Assembly (NCBI GenBank): GCA_002349525.1
Contig: DEDL01000032.1
Coordinates: 60,737 to 124,736 of the forward strand
Direction of reading: 5' to 3'
DNA from: Lachnoclostridium sp. UBA2905
Lineage (GTDB): Bacteria; Bacillota; Clostridia; Lachnospirales; Lachnospiraceae
Length of the DNA: 64,000 bases
Shown: piece after piece, positions 39,557 to 50,133 of the stretch
Position numbering within the stretch: the first letter of the stretch is position 1
Layout of the letters: every line of letters starts with the position of its first letter
Made by a program: the position numbers and the translations under genes
Notes under the pieces: generated by a model
The model's database searches: none
What the model was told of the DNA's origin: nothing
Seen by the model: the letters and a program-made list of their open reading frames with translations, nothing else

Positions 39557-40507
39557 ATGATTATTAAGAAGGATAAGATTACAATTATGACAAAAACAGA
39601 AAAGATTGAAAAGATTAAAGAACTTAAAATTAAAAAGGATGCAGTTATTCTTGCACATTACTATGTAAGTGATGAAGTTCAGGAAATTGCTGACTACATA
39701 GGTGATTCATATTTTTTGAGCAAAAAAGCTACAGAGCTTACTAACAAAACAATCGTATTTGCAGGAGTATCATTTATGGGAGAAAGTGCAAAGCTTCTTA
39801 ACAGTGAGAAAACTGTTCTTATGCCTGATATGACAGCAGACTGTCCAATGGCTCATATGGTTACTAAGGAAGTAATTGATAAGGCAAGGGCAGAATATGA
39901 TGATCTGAGTGTTGTATGCTATATCAATTCAACCGCTGAGATAAAATCCTGGTCTGATGTGTGTGTAACATCAGCCAATGCTGTTAAAATCGTAAAAAAC
40001 CTTCCTAACAAACACATTTTATTTATTCCTGATAAGAATCTTGGACATTATGTAGCAAAGATGGTACCTGAAAAGGAATTTGTATTCAACGACGGATATT
40101 GCCCACGCCATGAGTTTATGAAGGCTGATGAGGTGAAGGAGCTTATGAGTGAGCATCCTGGAGTGAAGGTACTTGCTCATCCTGAGTGTAACAGTGAAAT
40201 ACTTGAACTTGCAGATTACATAGGTTCAACAACAGGAATTATTAATTACAGCAGGGACAGTGAAGATAAGGAATTCATTATATGCACTGTTATGGGTGTT
40301 AATTATGAACTTAAAAGATTAAGACCTGATGCAAAATTTTATTTTACAAAGACACCTCCTGTGTGCGTTAACATGATGAAGAACTCATTGGAAAAAATAA
40401 TTGATGTCTTGGAAAATGGTAAAAATGAAATGGAACTGCCTGAAGAAGAAATTGGAGAAAAGGCTAAACTTACGTTGGATAGAATGCTTGAACTTGCTGC
40501 CAGATAA
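39557..40507 (+). CDS. nadA: Quinolinate synthase
   Basis: 'ILAHYY', 'IGDSY', 'DCPMA', 'CYINST', 'CPRH', 'AHPEC', 'CVNM'; start may be ATG39587. Confidence 0.96.
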   Translation: MIIKKDKITIMTKTEKIEKIKELKIKKDAVILAHYYVSDEVQEIADYIGDSYFLSKKATELTNKTIVFAGVSFMGESAKLLNSEKTVLMPDMTADCPMAHMVTKEVIDKARAEYDDLSVVCYINSTAEIKSWSDVCVTSANAVKIVKNLPNKHILFIPDKNLGHYVAKMVPEKEFVFNDGYCPRHEFMKADEVKELMSEHPGVKVLAHPECNSEILELADYIGSTTGIINYSRDSEDKEFIICTVMGVNYELKRLRPDAKFYFTKTPPVCVNMMKNSLEKIIDVLENGKNEMELPEEEIGEKAKLTLDRMLELAAR

Positions 40508-40548
40508 AAAGAATGTAATGGCAGATATAAACCGGAAAGGATGATATT

Positions 40549-41751
40549 ATGAAAACTATTAACTGTGATGCTGTAATCGTAGGTTGTGGTGTAGGAGGAC
40601 TGTATACCGCACTTAATCTTCCAAAGGACATGAAAATAATCATGCTGTCAAAGGAAGATGTAGAAAGCTGTGATTCCATGCTTGCACAGGGTGGAATATG
40701 TGTTTTGAGAGATGAGAACGATTATGATTCATATTATGAAGACACTATGAGAGCAGGACATTACGAAAATCGTGCAGAAAGCGTTGACATTATGATTCGC
40801 TCCAGCAGGAATGTTATAAATGATCTGCTTGACAAGGGTGTCCGCTTTGCTAAGGATGAAAATGGAGAGCTTATGTACACAAGAGAAGGTGCACATTCAA
40901 GACCACGTATATGTTTTCATGAAGATATAACCGGAAAAGAGATAACAACCACACTTCTGTCACATGTAAGGAAGCTTTCAAATGTAACTATTATGGAATA
41001 TACAACCATGACTGATATTATTGAGGTTGCAGGAGAGTGCGCCGGTGTAATTGCCAAAACCAAGGAAGGCGAAAAATTACATATTAAGGCACCGGATACC
41101 ATTATGGCAACAGGTGGAATCGGTGGATTATACGAATATTCAACCAACTTCCCATGTCTTACAGGGGATGGATGCAAAATCGCAGAAAAACATGGTGTAG
41201 AGCTTGAACATATGGATTATGTACAGATTCATCCAACAAGCCTTTACAGTGAAAAACCTGGAAGAAGCTTTTTGATATCAGAATCAGCAAGAGGTGAGGG
41301 AGCCCTTCTTTATAATCACAAGGGAGAAAGATTCGTTGATGAGCTTTTACCTAGAGATGTTGTTACAGATGCAATACATGCTGAAATGGAGAAGGAAAAT
41401 GTTCCTTATGAATATCTTTCGTTTGAAAATGTGAGTAAGGAAACTATTATGAAGCATTTTCCAAATATATATCACAAGTGTCTTGAAGAGGGTTATGATA
41501 TATTGAAGGAGCCTATACCGGTTGTTCCGGCCCAGCATTATTTTATGGGTGGGGTTCACGTGGATAGCGACTCCATGACAACAATGAATCATTTGTACGC
41601 AGTTGGAGAGACCAGTTGTAATGGTGTTCATGGTAAAAACAGACTTGCAAGCAATTCACTTTTGGAAAGTCTTGTATTTGCAAAGCGTTCAGCGGTAAAA
41701 ATTGTAAGAGAGCGCAGCGCAGACAGCAAAGAAGCTAAGAAAATAATATAG
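40549..41751 (+). CDS. nadB: L-aspartate oxidase (short clostridial type)
   Basis: 'VGCGVGGL', 'SMLAQGGI', 'TREGAHS', 'QIHPT', 'HGKNRLASNSLLE'. Confidence 0.95.
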   Translation: MKTINCDAVIVGCGVGGLYTALNLPKDMKIIMLSKEDVESCDSMLAQGGICVLRDENDYDSYYEDTMRAGHYENRAESVDIMIRSSRNVINDLLDKGVRFAKDENGELMYTREGAHSRPRICFHEDITGKEITTTLLSHVRKLSNVTIMEYTTMTDIIEVAGECAGVIAKTKEGEKLHIKAPDTIMATGGIGGLYEYSTNFPCLTGDGCKIAEKHGVELEHMDYVQIHPTSLYSEKPGRSFLISESARGEGALLYNHKGERFVDELLPRDVVTDAIHAEMEKENVPYEYLSFENVSKETIMKHFPNIYHKCLEEGYDILKEPIPVVPAQHYFMGGVHVDSDSMTTMNHLYAVGETSCNGVHGKNRLASNSLLESLVFAKRSAVKIVRERSADSKEAKKII

Positions 41752-41810
41752 ATACAGTTAAATACAAACAAATAATAAAATAGAAAATATATTATGTAAG
41801 GAGAATTAAT

Positions 41811-42686
41811 ATGAATCAGATTACAATGCAGTTAGTTGCAGATAAATACATAAAAATGGCATTAGAAGAGGATATTAACAGTGAGGATGTAACAACTAAT
41901 GCTGTTATGCCTGAAGCAAAACAGGGAAAGGTCAATCTTATATGTAAGGAAGACGGTATCATTGCAGGTCTTGGTATATTTGAAAGGGTATTTAAAATAC
42001 TGGATGAAAAGACTGACGTATCATTTATGAAAAAAGAAAATGGAGAAGCCTTCAAAGATGGTGACCAGGTTAAAAAGGGTGACTTGTTAGCTGTAGTATC
42101 AGGTGATATAAGAGTTCTTCTTTCAGGAGAAAGAACAGCACTTAACTACCTTCAGAGACTTAGTGGAATTGCTACATATACACATCAGGTGTCATCACTT
42201 CTTGAGGGATCAAAGACAAAGCTTCTTGATACAAGAAAAACTACACCATGTATGAGAATATTTGAAAAATATGCTGTTAAGATTGGTGGCGGACATAATC
42301 ACAGATACAATCTTTCTGATGGTGTTCTTCTCAAGGATAATCATATAGATGCAGCAGGTGGTGTTAAGGAAGCTGTGGCAGCAGCAAAGGAATACGCACC
42401 ATTTGTAAGGAAAATTGAAGTCGAAACAGAAAATCTTGAAATGGTAAAGGAAGCTGTAGAGGCCGGAGCAGATATTATCATGCTTGACAATATGACTTAT
42501 GAAGAGATGGCAGAGGCAATTAAGGTAATTGATGGAAGAGCAGAAACAGAATGCTCAGGTAATATTACAAAAGAAAATATTGCAACAATAACAAGACTTG
42601 GTGTAGACTATGTATCAAGTGGTGCACTTACACATTCAGCACCTATTCTTGATATAAGTCTTAAAAATCTTACTGTTACAGAATAG
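41811..42686 (+). CDS. nadC: Quinolinate phosphoribosyltransferase
   Basis: 'ERTALNYLQ', 'DTRKT', 'HRYNLSD', 'KDNH', 'IMLDN'. Confidence 0.97.
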   Translation: MNQITMQLVADKYIKMALEEDINSEDVTTNAVMPEAKQGKVNLICKEDGIIAGLGIFERVFKILDEKTDVSFMKKENGEAFKDGDQVKKGDLLAVVSGDIRVLLSGERTALNYLQRLSGIATYTHQVSSLLEGSKTKLLDTRKTTPCMRIFEKYAVKIGGGHNHRYNLSDGVLLKDNHIDAAGGVKEAVAAAKEYAPFVRKIEVETENLEMVKEAVEAGADIIMLDNMTYEEMAEAIKVIDGRAETECSGNITKENIATITRLGVDYVSSGALTHSAPILDISLKNLTVTE

Positions 42687-42762
42687 CTTGTATTATTTAT
42701 AATTTATATATAATATAGGTCAGGTCTGGAACTGATAATATCTGAAAAAGGGGGAAGAACAT

Positions 42763-43314
42763 TTGGAAAAAGAGTTAACAGGTGAAGAACGAAGATGTGA
42801 GCTGCTTAATATACTTAAGAACAGCAATCTTCCCGTATCAGGGGCTGAGCTTGGAAAAAGAGTTGGAGTAAGCAGACAGGTTGTAGTGCAGGATATTGCA
42901 CTGTTAAGGAGCAAGGGCATAGATATAACATCTACTGCCAGAGGATATATTGTTAATATGCTTAACGATTCTGACATGGCTACAAGAGTTATAAAGGTAT
43001 GCCATACGAGTGAACAGGTGGCAGAAGAGCTTAACATTATTGTGGACAATGGTGGATGTGTAGCAGATGTAATGGTTAATCACAGAGCTTATGGCAAGGT
43101 AAGGGCAGGTCTTAACATAAAAAATCGACGTGACGTCAAAAAATTTGTGGAAGAGCTGGAATCAGGAAAGTCGACACCTTTGCTTAATGTTACCTCCGGC
43201 TATCATTTTCATACGATTATGGCTGATAGCGAAGAAGTACTTGATGAAATAGAAAATGAACTGGCAGAAAAAGGTTTTCTTGCTGAAGTCCTTCCTTATG
43301 AGAAGGTTAATTAA
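42763..43314 (+). CDS. niaR: Niacin-responsive repressor NiaR (HTH + 3H domain)
   Basis: 'VSRQVVVQDIALLR', His motifs 'CHT', 'NHRAYG', 'HFHT'; adjacent to nadABC. Confidence 0.92.
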   Translation: MEKELTGEERRCELLNILKNSNLPVSGAELGKRVGVSRQVVVQDIALLRSKGIDITSTARGYIVNMLNDSDMATRVIKVCHTSEQVAEELNIIVDNGGCVADVMVNHRAYGKVRAGLNIKNRRDVKKFVEELESGKSTPLLNVTSGYHFHTIMADSEEVLDEIENELAEKGFLAEVLPYEKVN

Positions 43315-43372: not shown

Positions 43373-43401
43373 TTGACAACATCATGGCTTATAATTATAA
43401 T
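43373..43401 (+). promoter_or_regulatory. Consensus SigA promoter driving the leader and por operon
   Basis: Perfect TTGACA-17 bp-TATAAT. Confidence 0.9.
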
Positions 43402-43429
43402 TGACTTTAATCGGGCTAATTAATATGTA

Positions 43430-43582
43430 AAGACTACGACGGAGACAGTAGATTTTTTCTGAAAGTCAAAGAGAGCCACGTTGCTGGAAAGTGGTACCGG
43501 TAGGATCTAATTGAACATCCCTCCCAAGTTGCAGTGTCGAAAAGCAATGAGTAGATGCTGACGGAAACCAACCGTAATCATG
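43430..43582 (+). ncRNA. T-box-like leader RNA (Stem I, II, IIA/B), probable Ile (AUC) specifier, with no recognisable T-box/antiterminator
   Basis: GGAG/CTCC base helix, AGTA (43447) opposite GAAC-ATC (43513-19), AGAGAG box (43470), GCTG box (43483); Stem II CAGTGTC/GATGCTG with GAAA and AGTA; ACGG/CCGTAATCA F-box. Confidence 0.8.
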
Positions 43583-43630
43583 GTCGCATATGATAGTATG
43601 TTGTTGGATTGTTGATATAATTGATATTTT

Positions 43631-43668
43631 AACTCCTGCTGTCTATGGATAAGATAGCAGGAATTTTT
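43631..43668 (+). terminator. Leader terminator upstream of porC
   Basis: AACTCCTGCTGTCT / AGATAGCAGGAATT plus TTT. Confidence 0.85.
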
Positions 43669-43713
43669 AGTTTTGATTTAGTATTGAATTGAATGAAAGG
43701 AAGGTAATACATA

Positions 43714-44289
43714 GTGAAAAACACAGTTGAGATCAGGTGGCATGGAAGAGGTGGACAGGGTGCCAAAACAGCTGCACTTCTTCTTGCAGACGTTGCATTT
43801 AAGGCCGGAAAATATGTTCAGGGATTTCCTGAGTATGGTCCTGAAAGAATGGGTGCACCTATTACGGCATATAACAGAATCAGTGATGAGAAAATTACTG
43901 TTCATTCCAATATATATGATCCTGATTATGTAGTGGTTGTAGATGAGGGACTCCTTGACAGCATTGATGTTACTGCAGGACTTAATCCTGAGGGAGCAAT
44001 TGTTGTTAATTCAGCAAAGCCTGCATCAGAGATTATACCAAAGCTTCACGGATATACAGGAAAAGTTTATACAGTAGATGCTCATAAAATATCAGTTGCA
44101 GCACTTGGAAAATATTTTCCTAACTCACCTATGCTTGCAGCAATCGTTGCAGTATCAAAGGTAATGGATAAGGAACAGTTTCTTACTGAGATGGAGGGCT
44201 CTTATAAACACAAATTCAGTAAAAAGCCTGAAGTCATTGATGGTAATATGAAAGCACTTCGAATGACACTTGAGGAGGTTTTAGTATGA
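43714..44289 (+). CDS. porC: 2-oxoacid:ferredoxin oxidoreductase gamma subunit
   Basis: 'EIRWHGRGGQG', 'YGPERMGAP'. Confidence 0.93.
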   Translation: MKNTVEIRWHGRGGQGAKTAALLLADVAFKAGKYVQGFPEYGPERMGAPITAYNRISDEKITVHSNIYDPDYVVVVDEGLLDSIDVTAGLNPEGAIVVNSAKPASEIIPKLHGYTGKVYTVDAHKISVAALGKYFPNSPMLAAIVAVSKVMDKEQFLTEMEGSYKHKFSKKPEVIDGNMKALRMTLEEVLV

Positions 44290-44576
44290 TAAGCGACAGA
44301 ATTAATGAACAGTCATCCTGGAGAGACCTTACAGAAGGTAATAAGATATATGAGCCTGCAACATCAGTGCAGTTTAACACAGGAGAGTGGAGAACACAGG
44401 CGCCTGTACATGATGAAGCAAAATGTAAACAGTGTTATCTTTGTGTGCCTGTCTGTCCTGATCTTAGTATATCAGTAGGTGACAATGATAAAATAGTATT
44501 TGATATGGATCATTGCAAGGGCTGTGGAATCTGCTCTAAGGTATGTCCATTTGATGCAATAAGGATGGAGGAATAA
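44286..44576 (+). CDS. porD: 2-oxoacid:ferredoxin oxidoreductase delta subunit (2x4Fe-4S)
   Basis: 'TGEWR', CKQCYLCVPVCP and CKGCGICSKVCP. Confidence 0.93.
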   Translation: MISDRINEQSSWRDLTEGNKIYEPATSVQFNTGEWRTQAPVHDEAKCKQCYLCVPVCPDLSISVGDNDKIVFDMDHCKGCGICSKVCPFDAIRMEE

Positions 44577-44580
44577 GATT

Positions 44581-45765
44581 ATGGCAATTAGAGAGAGATT
44601 ATCAGGAAATGAAGCAGTTGCATACGCAATTAAGCAGATAAATCCGGATGTAATGCCGGCATTCCCTATTACACCATCAACAGAAATTCCACAGTATGTG
44701 GCTACATATATTGCTAATGGTGAGATTGATACGGAGTTTATTCCGGTAGAAAGTGAACATAGTTCAATGAGTGCAACAATTGGTGCATCAGCAGCAGGAG
44801 CAAGAGCTCTTACTGCAACCTCATCATGTGGTCTTGCTCTTATGTGGGAAGAATTATATGTTGCAGCATCAAACCGTTTTCCAATAGTACTTGCACTTGT
44901 TAACAGGGCTCTGTCAGGTCCAATTAATATTAATGCAGATCATTCAGATAGTATGGGTGCCAGAGACAGTGGATGGATTCAGATATATGCAGAATCTAAT
45001 CAGGAGGCATATGATAACTTCCTCCAGTCCTTCAGAATATCAGAGCATAAGGATGTTATGCTCCCTGTTATGATATGTCAGGATGGATTTATTACAAGTC
45101 ATGGTGTTGAGAATATTGAACTTGTTGAGGATGAGCTTGTTAAGGATTTCGTTGGAGAATATAATCCTGAACATTATCTTCTTAATTCAAAGGAGCCAAT
45201 GGCAGTAGGTCCTTATGCAGTATCTAATTACTATATGGAGTCAAAAAGAGCTCAGACAGAAGCACTTAAGAATGCCAAGAAGGTAATACTTGAGGTTGCA
45301 GAAGAATTTGAAAAAATGACTGGAAGAAAATATGGATTCTTTGAAGAATACAAGCTTGATGATGCAGATTATGCAATTGTTATAATCGGTTCAGCAGCAG
45401 GTACATGTAAGGCTGCAGTTGATGATATCAGAGAAAGAACTGGTAAAAAGGTTGGTATTCTTAAGATAAGAGTATTCCGTCCATTCCCTGAAGAAGAAAT
45501 AGCACATGCTCTTCGTAATGTTAAATCAGTTGCAATTCTTGACCGTTCAGAGATGTTTGCTGCAACAGGCGGACCACTTGGTGCTGAGGTAACAGCTGCA
45601 CTTTATAGAGCAGGACAGAATAAGGAAGTGGTTAACTACTTATATGGTCTTGGTGGAAGAGATATTACAGTAACTGAATTTGAAGACGTATATAATGAGC
45701 TTGAAAGAATGGCCGAAACACATGAAGTACGTGATAATTTCAAGTATATCGGACTTAGAGAGTGA
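44581..45765 (+). CDS. porA: 2-oxoacid:ferredoxin oxidoreductase alpha subunit
   Basis: 'SGNEAVA', 'FPITPST', 'ESEHS', 'TATSSCGL', 'NRA'. Confidence 0.95.
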   Translation: MAIRERLSGNEAVAYAIKQINPDVMPAFPITPSTEIPQYVATYIANGEIDTEFIPVESEHSSMSATIGASAAGARALTATSSCGLALMWEELYVAASNRFPIVLALVNRALSGPININADHSDSMGARDSGWIQIYAESNQEAYDNFLQSFRISEHKDVMLPVMICQDGFITSHGVENIELVEDELVKDFVGEYNPEHYLLNSKEPMAVGPYAVSNYYMESKRAQTEALKNAKKVILEVAEEFEKMTGRKYGFFEEYKLDDADYAIVIIGSAAGTCKAAVDDIRERTGKKVGILKIRVFRPFPEEEIAHALRNVKSVAILDRSEMFAATGGPLGAEVTAALYRAGQNKEVVNYLYGLGGRDITVTEFEDVYNELERMAETHEVRDNFKYIGLRE

Positions 45766-48273: not shown

Positions 48274-48300
48274 ACTTACCTACAGGAGGTGATGGGAAAA

Positions 48301-50133
48301 ATGAGTCTTTTAGTTATGGAAAACCTTACGAAATCATACACCGGAAGAAAGATCTTTGATGACGTTTCATTTAGCATAAATGAAGGTGAAAAAATAGGTG
48401 TTATAGGAATTAATGGAACCGGTAAATCAACTCTTCTGAAAATTGTGGCAGGAAAGGAAGAGGCAGATGGAGGAAGTATTGTAAAAAGAAGAAATCTTTA
48501 TATTCGTTATCTGCCACAGACACCGGAATTCGTAAGTGGAGATACTATTCTTGAAAGTATTGTCAGGGATAATTCAGATGAACCCTTGTTTAGTTCAAGA
48601 GAAGAAATTGAGGCAAGTGCAAAAAGTATTCTTACAAGGCTTAATATAAAGGATTTTGACAGAAAAGTTGACAATCTCTCAGGTGGTGAGAAAAAAAGGA
48701 TTGCTTTAACAAGTGTTCTTATCTCAACTGCAGACCTTCTTATACTTGATGAGCCGACTAATCACCTTGACAGTAATATGGCAGACTGGCTTGAGGATTA
48801 TCTTAAGCGTTTCAGGGGTGCACTGCTTATTATAACCCATGACAGATATTTTCTTGATAGTGTAACCAATAGAATAGTAGAAGTTGATAAGGGCAGATTA
48901 TACAGTTATCAGACGAATTATGAGGGCTTTGTAAAGGCCAAGGCTGAAAGGCTTGATAATGCCATATCTGCTGAAAAAAAGAGGCAGAATATACTTAGAA
49001 TTGAGTTAGCCTGGATGAGAAGAGGGGCAAGAGCACGTTCAACTAAGCAGAAGGCGCATATTGGAAGATATGAGGCACTGCGTGATATGAAGGCTCCGGA
49101 ATTTGATAAAGATGTCTGTATGGAATCCCTGTCAACCAGACTTGGAAGAACAACTATAGAGATAAGGGAGCTTTGCAAATCATTCGGCGACAGAAACCTT
49201 ATAAAGGATTTTACTTATGTCTTTGGACGCAATGACAGAATTGGAATTGTTGGTCCTAACGGCTGTGGTAAATCAACTCTTATGAAAATAATATGTGGAA
49301 TTACTGAGGCTGATTCCGGTACTGTGGAAATAGGCCAGACAGTTAAGTTTGGTTATTTTTCACAGGAAAATGAGATGCTTCCTGAGAATGAGAGGGTTAT
49401 TGATTATATTAAGGATATTGCTGAATTTGTCAGGACAAAGGATGGGTATGTGAGTGCAAGTCAGATGCTTGAGCGTTTTTTATTTGAACCGGAAAAGCAG
49501 TACACGGTAATCTCAAAGCTGTCAGGTGGGGAAAAGCGCAGATTATACCTTTTGAGTATTCTCATTAGCGCACCTAATGTGCTTATACTTGATGAGCCTA
49601 CGAATGATCTTGATATAAGGACTCTCACAATACTTGAAAATTATCTTGATAATTTTGATGGAATCGTTATTACTGTATCCCATGACAGATATTTTCTGGA
49701 CAGGGTCGTAAGGAGAATATTTGCCTATGTTGGTGATGGGGTTATTGAGCAGTATGAGGGTGGTTTTACTGATTATCAGGTTTCATATGCCTTAAGACAT
49801 CCTGAGAGTGAAGAGGCTCTGGCAATTTCAGGCAAAAAAAATACTGAGGATACAAAGGATAGTAAGAAAACTGCTGACAGAGAGCATAGCAGGAAACTGA
49901 AATTTTCTTACAAGGAAGAAAGAGAATGGGAAACCATAGAGGATGATATTGCAGCTCTTGAAGAAAAAATATCAGAGCTTGAAGAGGCTATGACGGAAAC
50001 TGCAACTGATTTTGTAAGGTTAAATGAACTTTCAAAGGAAAAAGATGAAACAGAAGCTCTTTTGGAAGAGAAAATGGAAAGATGGGAGTATCTTAGTAAT
50101 CTGGCTGAAGAGATAGAAAAACAGAAAAAGTAA
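48301..50133 (+). CDS. ABC-F family ATPase (Uup-like)
   Basis: Two NBDs (GINGTGKST, GPNGCGKST; LSGGE x2; DEPTN x2), linker, C-terminal coiled CTD, no TMs. Confidence 0.93.
   Translation: MSLLVMENLTKSYTGRKIFDDVSFSINEGEKIGVIGINGTGKSTLLKIVAGKEEADGGSIVKRRNLYIRYLPQTPEFVSGDTILESIVRDNSDEPLFSSREEIEASAKSILTRLNIKDFDRKVDNLSGGEKKRIALTSVLISTADLLILDEPTNHLDSNMADWLEDYLKRFRGALLIITHDRYFLDSVTNRIVEVDKGRLYSYQTNYEGFVKAKAERLDNAISAEKKRQNILRIELAWMRRGARARSTKQKAHIGRYEALRDMKAPEFDKDVCMESLSTRLGRTTIEIRELCKSFGDRNLIKDFTYVFGRNDRIGIVGPNGCGKSTLMKIICGITEADSGTVEIGQTVKFGYFSQENEMLPENERVIDYIKDIAEFVRTKDGYVSASQMLERFLFEPEKQYTVISKLSGGEKRRLYLLSILISAPNVLILDEPTNDLDIRTLTILENYLDNFDGIVITVSHDRYFLDRVVRRIFAYVGDGVIEQYEGGFTDYQVSYALRHPESEEALAISGKKNTEDTKDSKKTADREHSRKLKFSYKEEREWETIEDDIAALEEKISELEEAMTETATDFVRLNELSKEKDETEALLEEKMERWEYLSNLAEEIEKQKK

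Follow-up and report, generated by a model that had tools for sequence, protein, structure and literature searches.

Canonical transcriptional T-box leaders (RF00230), among them those of B. subtilis tyrS and glyQS, combine a Stem I platform, a Stem II with S-turn, a Stem IIA/B pseudoknot and Stem III, set a terminator against an alternative helix, and stand before amino-acid-related operons. Their discriminator consists of Stem III, helices A1 and A2 and a 7-nt UGGN bulge (PMC7583486). That this bulge pairs with the NCCA end of tRNA is regarded as the universal and defining readout of aminoacylation, and databases and covariance models are built on it. Here we analysed a 64,000-nt stretch of Lachnoclostridium sp. 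UBA2905 (contig DEDL01000032.1, positions 60,737 to 124,736; called the window below, with all positions counted from its first letter) and describe the leader of its porCDAB operon, located on the + strand between 43373 and 43713. All of the canonical features listed first are shared by this leader. In contrast to canonical members, it has neither the 7-nt UGGN bulge nor the A1/A2 antiterminator, its alternative helix would be formed by the Stem III strand itself, and C, not a purine, follows the specifier codon. Because the UGGN bulge is the defining T-box feature, its absence sets the window leader apart from canonical T-boxes. We read it as a T-box-derived tRNA-Ile transcription-attenuation leader that controls porCDAB, belongs to a bulge-less lineage and has a rebuilt expression platform, and we put the probability of this reading at about 0.5.

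Another reduced system has been described. The actinobacterial translational ileS T-boxes (6UFG, 6UFM; PMC7583486) are likewise Ile-specific and structurally reduced, showing that T-box modules can disappear or be remodelled. However, they keep the UGGN bulge, lack distal Stem I and act on the Shine-Dalgarno sequence, whereas the window leader has lost the opposite module and would exert its control by a terminator. TBDB contains 48 entries with a specifier and no detectable UGGN, given as a count and not described as a class (PMC7778990). In the searchable literature, we found neither a bulge-less T-box class described nor T-box control of por.

Two leader types are defined here by the sequence downstream of Stem III. 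Class A is canonical, with ..CGU-AAUAGG-UGGUAUA-GCGAA.. 3′ of Stem III, and its targets are por (Syntrophomonas, Dorea and others), ileS and a citramalate/isopropylmalate (IPM)-synthase-like gene. Class B is without UGGN and precedes porCDAB of Lachnospiraceae, some ileS genes and a PNP_UDP_1-family gene. The class A Ile T-boxes of Clostridia have a 5′ domain homologous to that of the window leader and a Stem III of the form CGCAUAUG..GUAUG.CG, and some stand on the same operon; unlike the window leader, they carry A1 - UGGUAUA - A2 (..AGGUGGUAUAGCGAA..), and their Stem III loops are mostly of the GNNA type or hold large insertions. Class B leaders are closest to the window leader, with 80-85% identity in the 5′ domain, the same operon and likewise no UGGN bulge. 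They differ from it in a UGNUGGU loop and a covarying CGUARAUGG:CCGUUURCG helix, in place of which the window shows the loop UGAUAGU and a vestige of the helix, its terminator having been rebuilt.

Identification of the tRNA-binding body

At Rfam gathering thresholds, the entire 64 kb gave no matches. With Infernal reporting by E-value, RF00230 matched 43427-43646 with 61.1 bits and E 7e-13 (gathering score 93); posterior probability was high for Stem I, Stem II and Stem IIA/B and low for the Stem III/antiterminator part. Five ileS T-boxes of Lachnospiraceae in which the GGUGGU bulge is clear scored only 63-85 bits against the same model, indicating that the 93-bit gathering criterion is weak here and that such canonical leaders are overlooked by Rfam-based annotation. 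The current Rfam threshold misses the class B leaders together with many canonical Ile T-boxes of Lachnospiraceae.

Relatives were sampled through PorC homologues, which gave 80 Lachnospiraceae loci, and through a scan for the hairpin 3′ of Stem IIA/B, which gave a further 120 loci (L081-L200). To examine the fold, 35 homologous leaders were aligned, and the IIA/B pseudoknot was included. Pairing across the T-box fold reached 95.5%, and compensatory changes were present at 28/41 pairs, a result matched by 0/500 shuffles; none of the shuffled and slid controls came close to it. Together with the Rfam E-value, this covariation bears out the scaffold of Stem I, AUC specifier, Stem II and Stem IIA/B that had been described earlier by a model from the letters alone (the sequence-only reading).

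Stem I (43432-43530, Rfam alignment) contains the AGUA/GAA specifier-loop S-turn, the distal loop and the AG bulge AGAGA at 43470-74, and covariation was found in its helices 1-6. On the 3′ side of the specifier loop, GAA-C-AUC-C occupies 43513-43520, with the Ile specifier AUC at 43517-43519 followed by C43520. AUC is the preferred Ile specifier according to TBDB (PMC7778990). GAA-N-AUC-C is kept in every relative, and the AUC codon itself is invariant, so the ligand is taken to be tRNA-Ile. After the codon, the por leaders of class B carry an invariant C (AUC-C; 43520 in the window) and not the conserved purine; AUC-A prevails in the class A leaders of por and ileS.

Stem II (43532-43560, Rfam alignment) has its GAGUA S-turn at 43549-53 and shows compensatory changes at 4/4 pairs of helix 7. 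In the adjoining element (43561-43584), Stem IIA pairs 43561-64 with 43572-75, and the IIB pseudoknot pairs ACCA (43567-70) with UGGU (43581-84). Helices 7-9, covering Stem II and IIA/B, are 95-100% paired with compensatory changes, and the pseudoknot, helix 9, is paired in 100% of the 35 sequences and compensated at 3/4 pairs. The sequence-only reading had nominated a small ATCAT...ATGAT hairpin at 43577-94 as receptor of the tRNA ACCA end. This hairpin is conserved in no relative, and the UGGU within it belongs to the IIA/B pseudoknot, forming its covarying 3′ strand; the proposal was rejected.

The tRNA-binding body of the window copy is intact. Its 5′ domain departs at 5/95 of the columns that are ≥90% conserved in por class B, other members departing at 0-5, and two of the five departures (43478 and 43492) form a compensatory pair. 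The distance between the window and its relative L006 was 0.92 at four-fold synonymous sites of porC, 0.16 in the 5′ domain and 0.65 in the 3′ platform, against a platform distance of 0.03 between L006 and L003. On the window branch the 5′ domain thus evolved at ~0.18x and the 3′ platform at ~0.8x the synonymous rate. The low rate of the 5′ domain indicates that the tRNA-binding body stayed constrained on this branch, and, as far as comparison of leaders can tell, the window leader very likely still binds tRNA-Ile and gates por by means of its terminator.

Absence of the UGGN bulge

Neither the window nor any of the 18 nearest-relative por leaders has a GGUGGNACC-like motif in the stretch from Stem III to the terminator. 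The sole match in the window leader, GTGGTACCG, sits in distal Stem I, as the sequence-only reading had observed when it reported the want of an antiterminator bulge between body and terminator. A 7-nt UGGN bulge between helices A1 and A2 was likewise not found in 43604-43633 of the window. The bulge is absent from 18/18 por leaders of the nearest Lachnospiraceae species, which were found by PorC homology, and the homologous positions are a variable loop in these relatives.

An ordinary canonical T-box whose T-box sequence was overlooked or has slightly diverged is hardly credible. Many canonical Lachnospiraceae Ile T-boxes do fall under the Rfam gathering threshold as well, with their 63-85 bits. 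However, the segment that separates Stem III from the terminator is free of GGUGG and UGGN-ACC-like motifs, and the canonical antiterminator was not aligned in the RF00230 check proposed by the sequence-only reading, the 3′ part of the alignment having low posterior probability. Regular-expression searches, the Infernal alignment and the alignments of homologues, in which the variable loop of the 18 relatives fills the place of the bulge, agree in rejecting a hidden or divergent canonical T-box. The sequence-only reading had also envisaged a dead relic, with intact T-boxes in relatives, a simple deletion in this copy and a new promoter for por; the nearest relatives turned out to be bulge-less too, and no second promoter was found.

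Canonical Ile T-boxes were seen before porCDAB at ten Syntrophomonas loci, at three loci of Dorea and at two further loci. The class A por leaders of Dorea and Syntrophomonas indicate that several lineages have por as a target of Ile T-boxes. By this comparison, the bulge was lost within Lachnospiraceae. In a distance tree, the class B ileS leaders and the class B por leaders were the most distant groups, which suggests that the bulge was lost more than once. Behind five bulge-less Ile leaders, a ~255-aa protein of the phosphorylase superfamily (PF01048, PNP_UDP_1) is encoded, and at one other locus (L094) an open reading frame (ORF) of the GNAT family precedes the PNP_UDP_1 gene.

Stem III is usually described as variable. 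Its 19-nt sequence CGCAUAUGNUGGUAUGNCG was identical across Ile T-boxes of Lachnospiraceae, Syntrophomonas, Oscillospiraceae and Clostridiaceae among loci L081-L200. In ileS-anchored leaders, only the base CAUAU..GUAUG is kept, and the loop is variable or has large insertions. A genome scan with the 15-mer AGTAGATGCTGACGG, run for leader sampling independent of Stem III, returned mostly random matches and 4 real leaders.

The switch of class B relatives

In class B relatives, CGUARAUGG, the 9 nt that directly follow Stem III, forms a helix of ~-12 kcal/mol with CCGUUURCG in the apex of the terminator, and the compensatory sets include UGG:CCG, UGA:UCG, UAG:CUA and GAU:AUC. Each leader paired better with its own partner than with those of others (-10.2 vs -8.6 kcal/mol for own vs cross duplexes; own partner favoured at 56/65 loci, P 2.6e-7). 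The antiterminator fold of the relatives, at ~-14.5 kcal/mol, is less stable than their terminator fold at -19 to -28 kcal/mol; in canonical T-boxes too the antiterminator is the less stable fold, and tRNA is needed to tip the balance. By these comparative criteria class B would be a working switch, in which the 9-bp antiterminator starting right after Stem III competes with the terminator apex.

The Stem III loop of class B has the consensus UGNUGG followed by U, giving UGGU, and the UGG is present in 18/18 por relatives. This UGGU is the same sequence as the bulge of class A relatives. Loop and bulge were counted in gene-anchored samples, namely PorC loci and IleS loci, and the counts were curated: UGGU occurs in the Stem III loop of 22/23 bulge-less leaders and of 5/68 bulge-bearing leaders, whose loops are mostly of the GNNA type or replaced by long insertions. 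Absence of the bulge was associated with the UGGU loop at Fisher P 1e-10, a value computed on the raw regular-expression table with the kinship of the leaders ignored.

These observations suggest that in the relatives pairing with the ACCA end of the tRNA may have passed to the UGGU of the Stem III loop. tRNA-Ile is expected to carry an A73 discriminator, which UGGU matches, and RNase P and the ribosomal P-loop offer precedents for a hairpin loop that receives a CCA end. Since Stem III abuts the A1 helix, the acceptor stem, the ACCA:UGGU pairs, Stem III and A1 could form one stack. Such a stack would be analogous to the "central spine" of canonical T-boxes (PMC7583486). The full form of this proposal is a T-box lineage without NCCA-bulge pairing: in most members the P-loop-like UGGU loop of Stem III would take the ACCA end and stack on the antiterminator, and in the window species, which lacks that loop as well, tRNA-Ile binding would be read by a strand exchange that involves Stem III and the terminator arm; we hold it as tentative and rather doubtful. 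If true, such a readout would give a tRNA-sensing RNA an expression platform of new logic. In any case, class B leaders combine the whole anticodon- and elbow-binding body with a covarying switch, without the bulge, in abundant gut Lachnospiraceae. Either charging would be read by another element, for which the invariant UGGU Stem III loop is the candidate, or a T-box would regulate without reading charging.

Many por leaders have a second terminator-like hairpin 25-60 nt past the first. Its 5′ arm, CCRNCURUGC, is complementary to the Stem III 5′ strand and loop GCAUAUGNUGG. The duplexes between GCAUAUGNUGG and the terminator arm keep a constant register in at least 12 relatives, reach -14 to -18.6 kcal/mol and covary at the loop N position. 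In five leaders, the hairpin with the Stem III-complementary arm is the only terminator.

The expression platform of the window copy

The window copy is a derived member of class B with a rebuilt platform: only a vestige of the family antiterminator is left, and the 5′ arm of the single terminator has gained complementarity to the Stem III strand. Stem III is the hairpin CGCAUA-UGAUAG-UAUG(U)UG at 43585-43603, placed by alignment of relatives. Its loop reads UGAUAG-U where the family has UGNUGG, G43595 being replaced by A so that UGG becomes UAG. Canonical Stem III is flanked as 5′-RRRxG-Stem III-AA-3′ (PMC7583486). The 5′ flank is AUGGU-CG in the window vs AGAGGA-CG in relatives, and the 3′ flank is UUGG vs UAAA or UAGA, so the AA is lost in the window. 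At 43602-43611, alignment reveals the vestige of the family antiterminator 5′ strand (UGUUGGAUUG in the window, CGUAGAUGG in the family), whose pairing with 43639-47 amounts to -3.1 kcal/mol vs -9.8 kcal/mol in L006. Neither the class B A1 helix CGUARAUGG:CCGUUURCG nor the UGNUGGU loop is present in the window. RNAfold predicted an AU/GU-rich, window-specific inner hairpin at 43603-43633 in both alternative folds; it was not conserved in the aligned relatives.

The intrinsic terminator (43634-43668) has an 11-bp stem formed by 43634-44 with 43652-62, the loop AUGGAUA and a U-run at 43664-68. Five of its 11 bp are GC, its stability is -16 to -17 kcal/mol, and AUUUUUAGUUUU follows; with a GC-containing hairpin and a U-run on the sense strand upstream of a gene, it has the make-up of a Rho-independent terminator, and the sequence-only reading had rightly called it strong. 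A candidate antiterminator of 16 pairs joins the Stem III strand (43583-43600) to the terminator 5′ arm and loop (43636-43650), and its formation precludes Stem III as well as the terminator. When the terminator 3′ arm was blocked, the fold had -19.3 kcal/mol vs -26.9 kcal/mol for the terminator fold. The duplex of Stem III strand and arm reaches -13.3 kcal/mol, compared with ~-7 kcal/mol for the first terminators of relatives, and its P value is 0.017-0.05 vs shuffles and genomic background. Because the same register and layout recur in relatives, this helix is probably not a chance product. A metagenome scan for window-type Stem III variants yielded one identical contig only, giving no covariation data for the window helix.

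The window leader could accordingly adopt two states. State 1 would combine the Stem III hairpin with the terminator; in state 2, the Stem III strand would be paired with the terminator arm, leading to read-through. The choice between them would be biased by tRNA-Ile bound to the 5′ body. Among the anatomies considered for the window copy, this competition between the Stem III hairpin and the helix of Stem III strand and terminator arm appears to be the best supported.

The same data bear on whether the switch has decayed. In a half-dead relic, the tRNA-binding body would persist after loss of the 3′ sensing module, and the terminator would be a constitutive leaky attenuator keeping por at a low basal level. 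Both family hallmarks are gone in the window (loop UAGU; A1 helix -3.1 kcal/mol), the platform evolved at a near-neutral rate on this branch, contigs both end at the terminator and span it, and degenerate first terminators occur also in several relatives. On the other hand, the 5′ domain on the window branch is as constrained as among relatives and has compensatory changes, the terminator is a perfect 11-bp hairpin and not decaying, and its 5′ arm gained Stem III complementarity in the register of the relatives. Moreover, a strong terminator without a second promoter would silence an intact and widespread operon. A near-neutral platform that nevertheless holds a perfect terminator indicates remodelling, not abandonment to decay. 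We regard the relic as unlikely, though as the main rival it deserves serious weight. The sequence-only reading had listed a decayed switch, a tRNA-binding small RNA and a non-canonical switch. The last is favoured at the family level, and the window leader is probably a non-canonical T-box derivative that is still regulatory; as for the first, the window copy has lost the UGGU loop and the A1 helix, so sensing in the window species may have partly decayed.

The energies also allow a sensor of altered logic that is blind to charging: bound tRNA-Ile would stabilise the pseudoknot and Stem III and cause termination, and tRNA-free leaders would be read through. Stem III is weak (-3.8 kcal/mol) against the competing helix at -13.3 kcal/mol, which can form before the 3′ arm is transcribed and overlaps the pseudoknot 3′ strand at 43583-84, and an ACCA-pairing site is absent. 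However, the canonical por leaders of Syntrophomonas and Dorea imply induction by uncharged tRNA-Ile, tRNA is abundant so that a charge-blind repressor would be off nearly always, and no precedent for such a device is known. It strikes us as improbable.

Several points weigh against attenuation by tRNA-Ile through a rebuilt platform, as we favour it. Naively, a tRNA that stabilises Stem III would favour termination, opposite to T-box logic. The helix 43583-43600/43636-43650 is individually of marginal significance (P 0.017-0.05), the association of loop and bulge carries no phylogenetic correction, and the expression contigs described below are of low depth and come from runs possibly containing DNA. 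The window copy lacks both the UGGN bulge and the UGGU loop of Stem III, where A43595 would lie opposite C75. A plausible site for ACCA binding that fits A73 is no longer present, the leader holding only two UGGA motifs. These motifs, at 43605-08 and 43646-49, mismatch the expected A73 discriminator and are unconserved, and were rejected as substitute ACCA receptors.

Promoter, transcripts and strain variation

A sigma-70-type promoter for the leader-porCDAB transcript lies at 43373-43401 on the + strand (-35 TTGACA, 17-nt spacer, -10 TATAAT); its 12/12 match confirms the consensus promoter of the sequence-only reading, and it is unchanged across strain variants L201-L206. The leader extends for ~260 nt after it and closes with the terminator hairpin and U-run. 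The distance from terminator to porC is 45 nt. A scan of 43668-43713 on the + strand for promoter-like sites found none, in line with what had been noted from the letters. The ribosome-binding site GGAAGG (43699-43704) and GTG start (43714) of porC follow (43699-43716). A leader-peptide check gave a single 20-codon ATG ORF (43590-43652) without an Ile run.

Identical PorC protein is present in hundreds of gut metagenome assemblies, and in six contigs the leader is the same as in the window apart from at most 3 SNPs (single-nucleotide polymorphisms). One of these SNPs, 43586 G>A, replaces the G.U pair of Stem III by A-U. One RNA-labelled contig, covering 43426-43670, ends at the U-run, and several others span the terminator; all are of low depth, and the runs may contain DNA. 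As evidence on termination vs read-through they are suggestive at best.

A stand-alone ~260-nt tRNA-binding RNA, a sponge or anticodon sensor whose terminated product is itself functional, would suit the consensus promoter, the strong terminator, the contig 43426-43670 and the conserved tRNA-binding domain. However, in every relative the element immediately precedes porC or ileS, reads in their direction and has a covarying antiterminator/terminator, porC has no promoter of its own, and terminated leaders are a by-product of any attenuator. We consider this explanation very unlikely.

The por genes and their neighbourhood

The operon comprises porC (43714-44289), porD (44286-44576), porA (44581-45765) and porB (to 46732), all on the + strand. 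By its NCBIfam matches (TIGR02175, TIGR02179, NF040682, NF008819), porCDAB is a four-subunit 2-oxoacid:ferredoxin oxidoreductase of the POR/VOR family. Judging from sequence, the canonical Ile T-boxes before por imply that the enzyme is induced by uncharged tRNA-Ile. Its role is likely the reductive synthesis of an Ile-precursor 2-oxoacid, which would proceed by reductive carboxylation of 2-methylbutyryl-CoA or propionyl-CoA, and porCDAB would then serve isoleucine supply. In gut and syntrophic Clostridia, the finding links a POR/VOR-type oxidoreductase with the supply of isoleucine.

A citrate synthase gene (NF010635; 46788-48212) begins 55 nt past porB. Apart from the window, just its two closest relatives showed this arrangement; at the other por loci examined, no citrate synthase turned up in the ~5-7 kb that follow the leader, and the gene was rejected as part of a conserved Ile regulon. 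Downstream of it lies a gene for an ABC-F family ATPase (48289-50133), whose best NCBIfam match is a ribosomal-protection-like ABC-F model, with an EttA-like model scoring close behind. Directly upstream of the leader promoter, the window has nadA, nadB, nadC and a NiaR-like regulator with HTH_11 and 3H domains (39557-43314). Other metagenome contigs with identical PorC have as upstream neighbour an FtsX-family gene (two contigs) or a transposase (one contig), the breakpoint falling just 5′ of the conserved promoter region.

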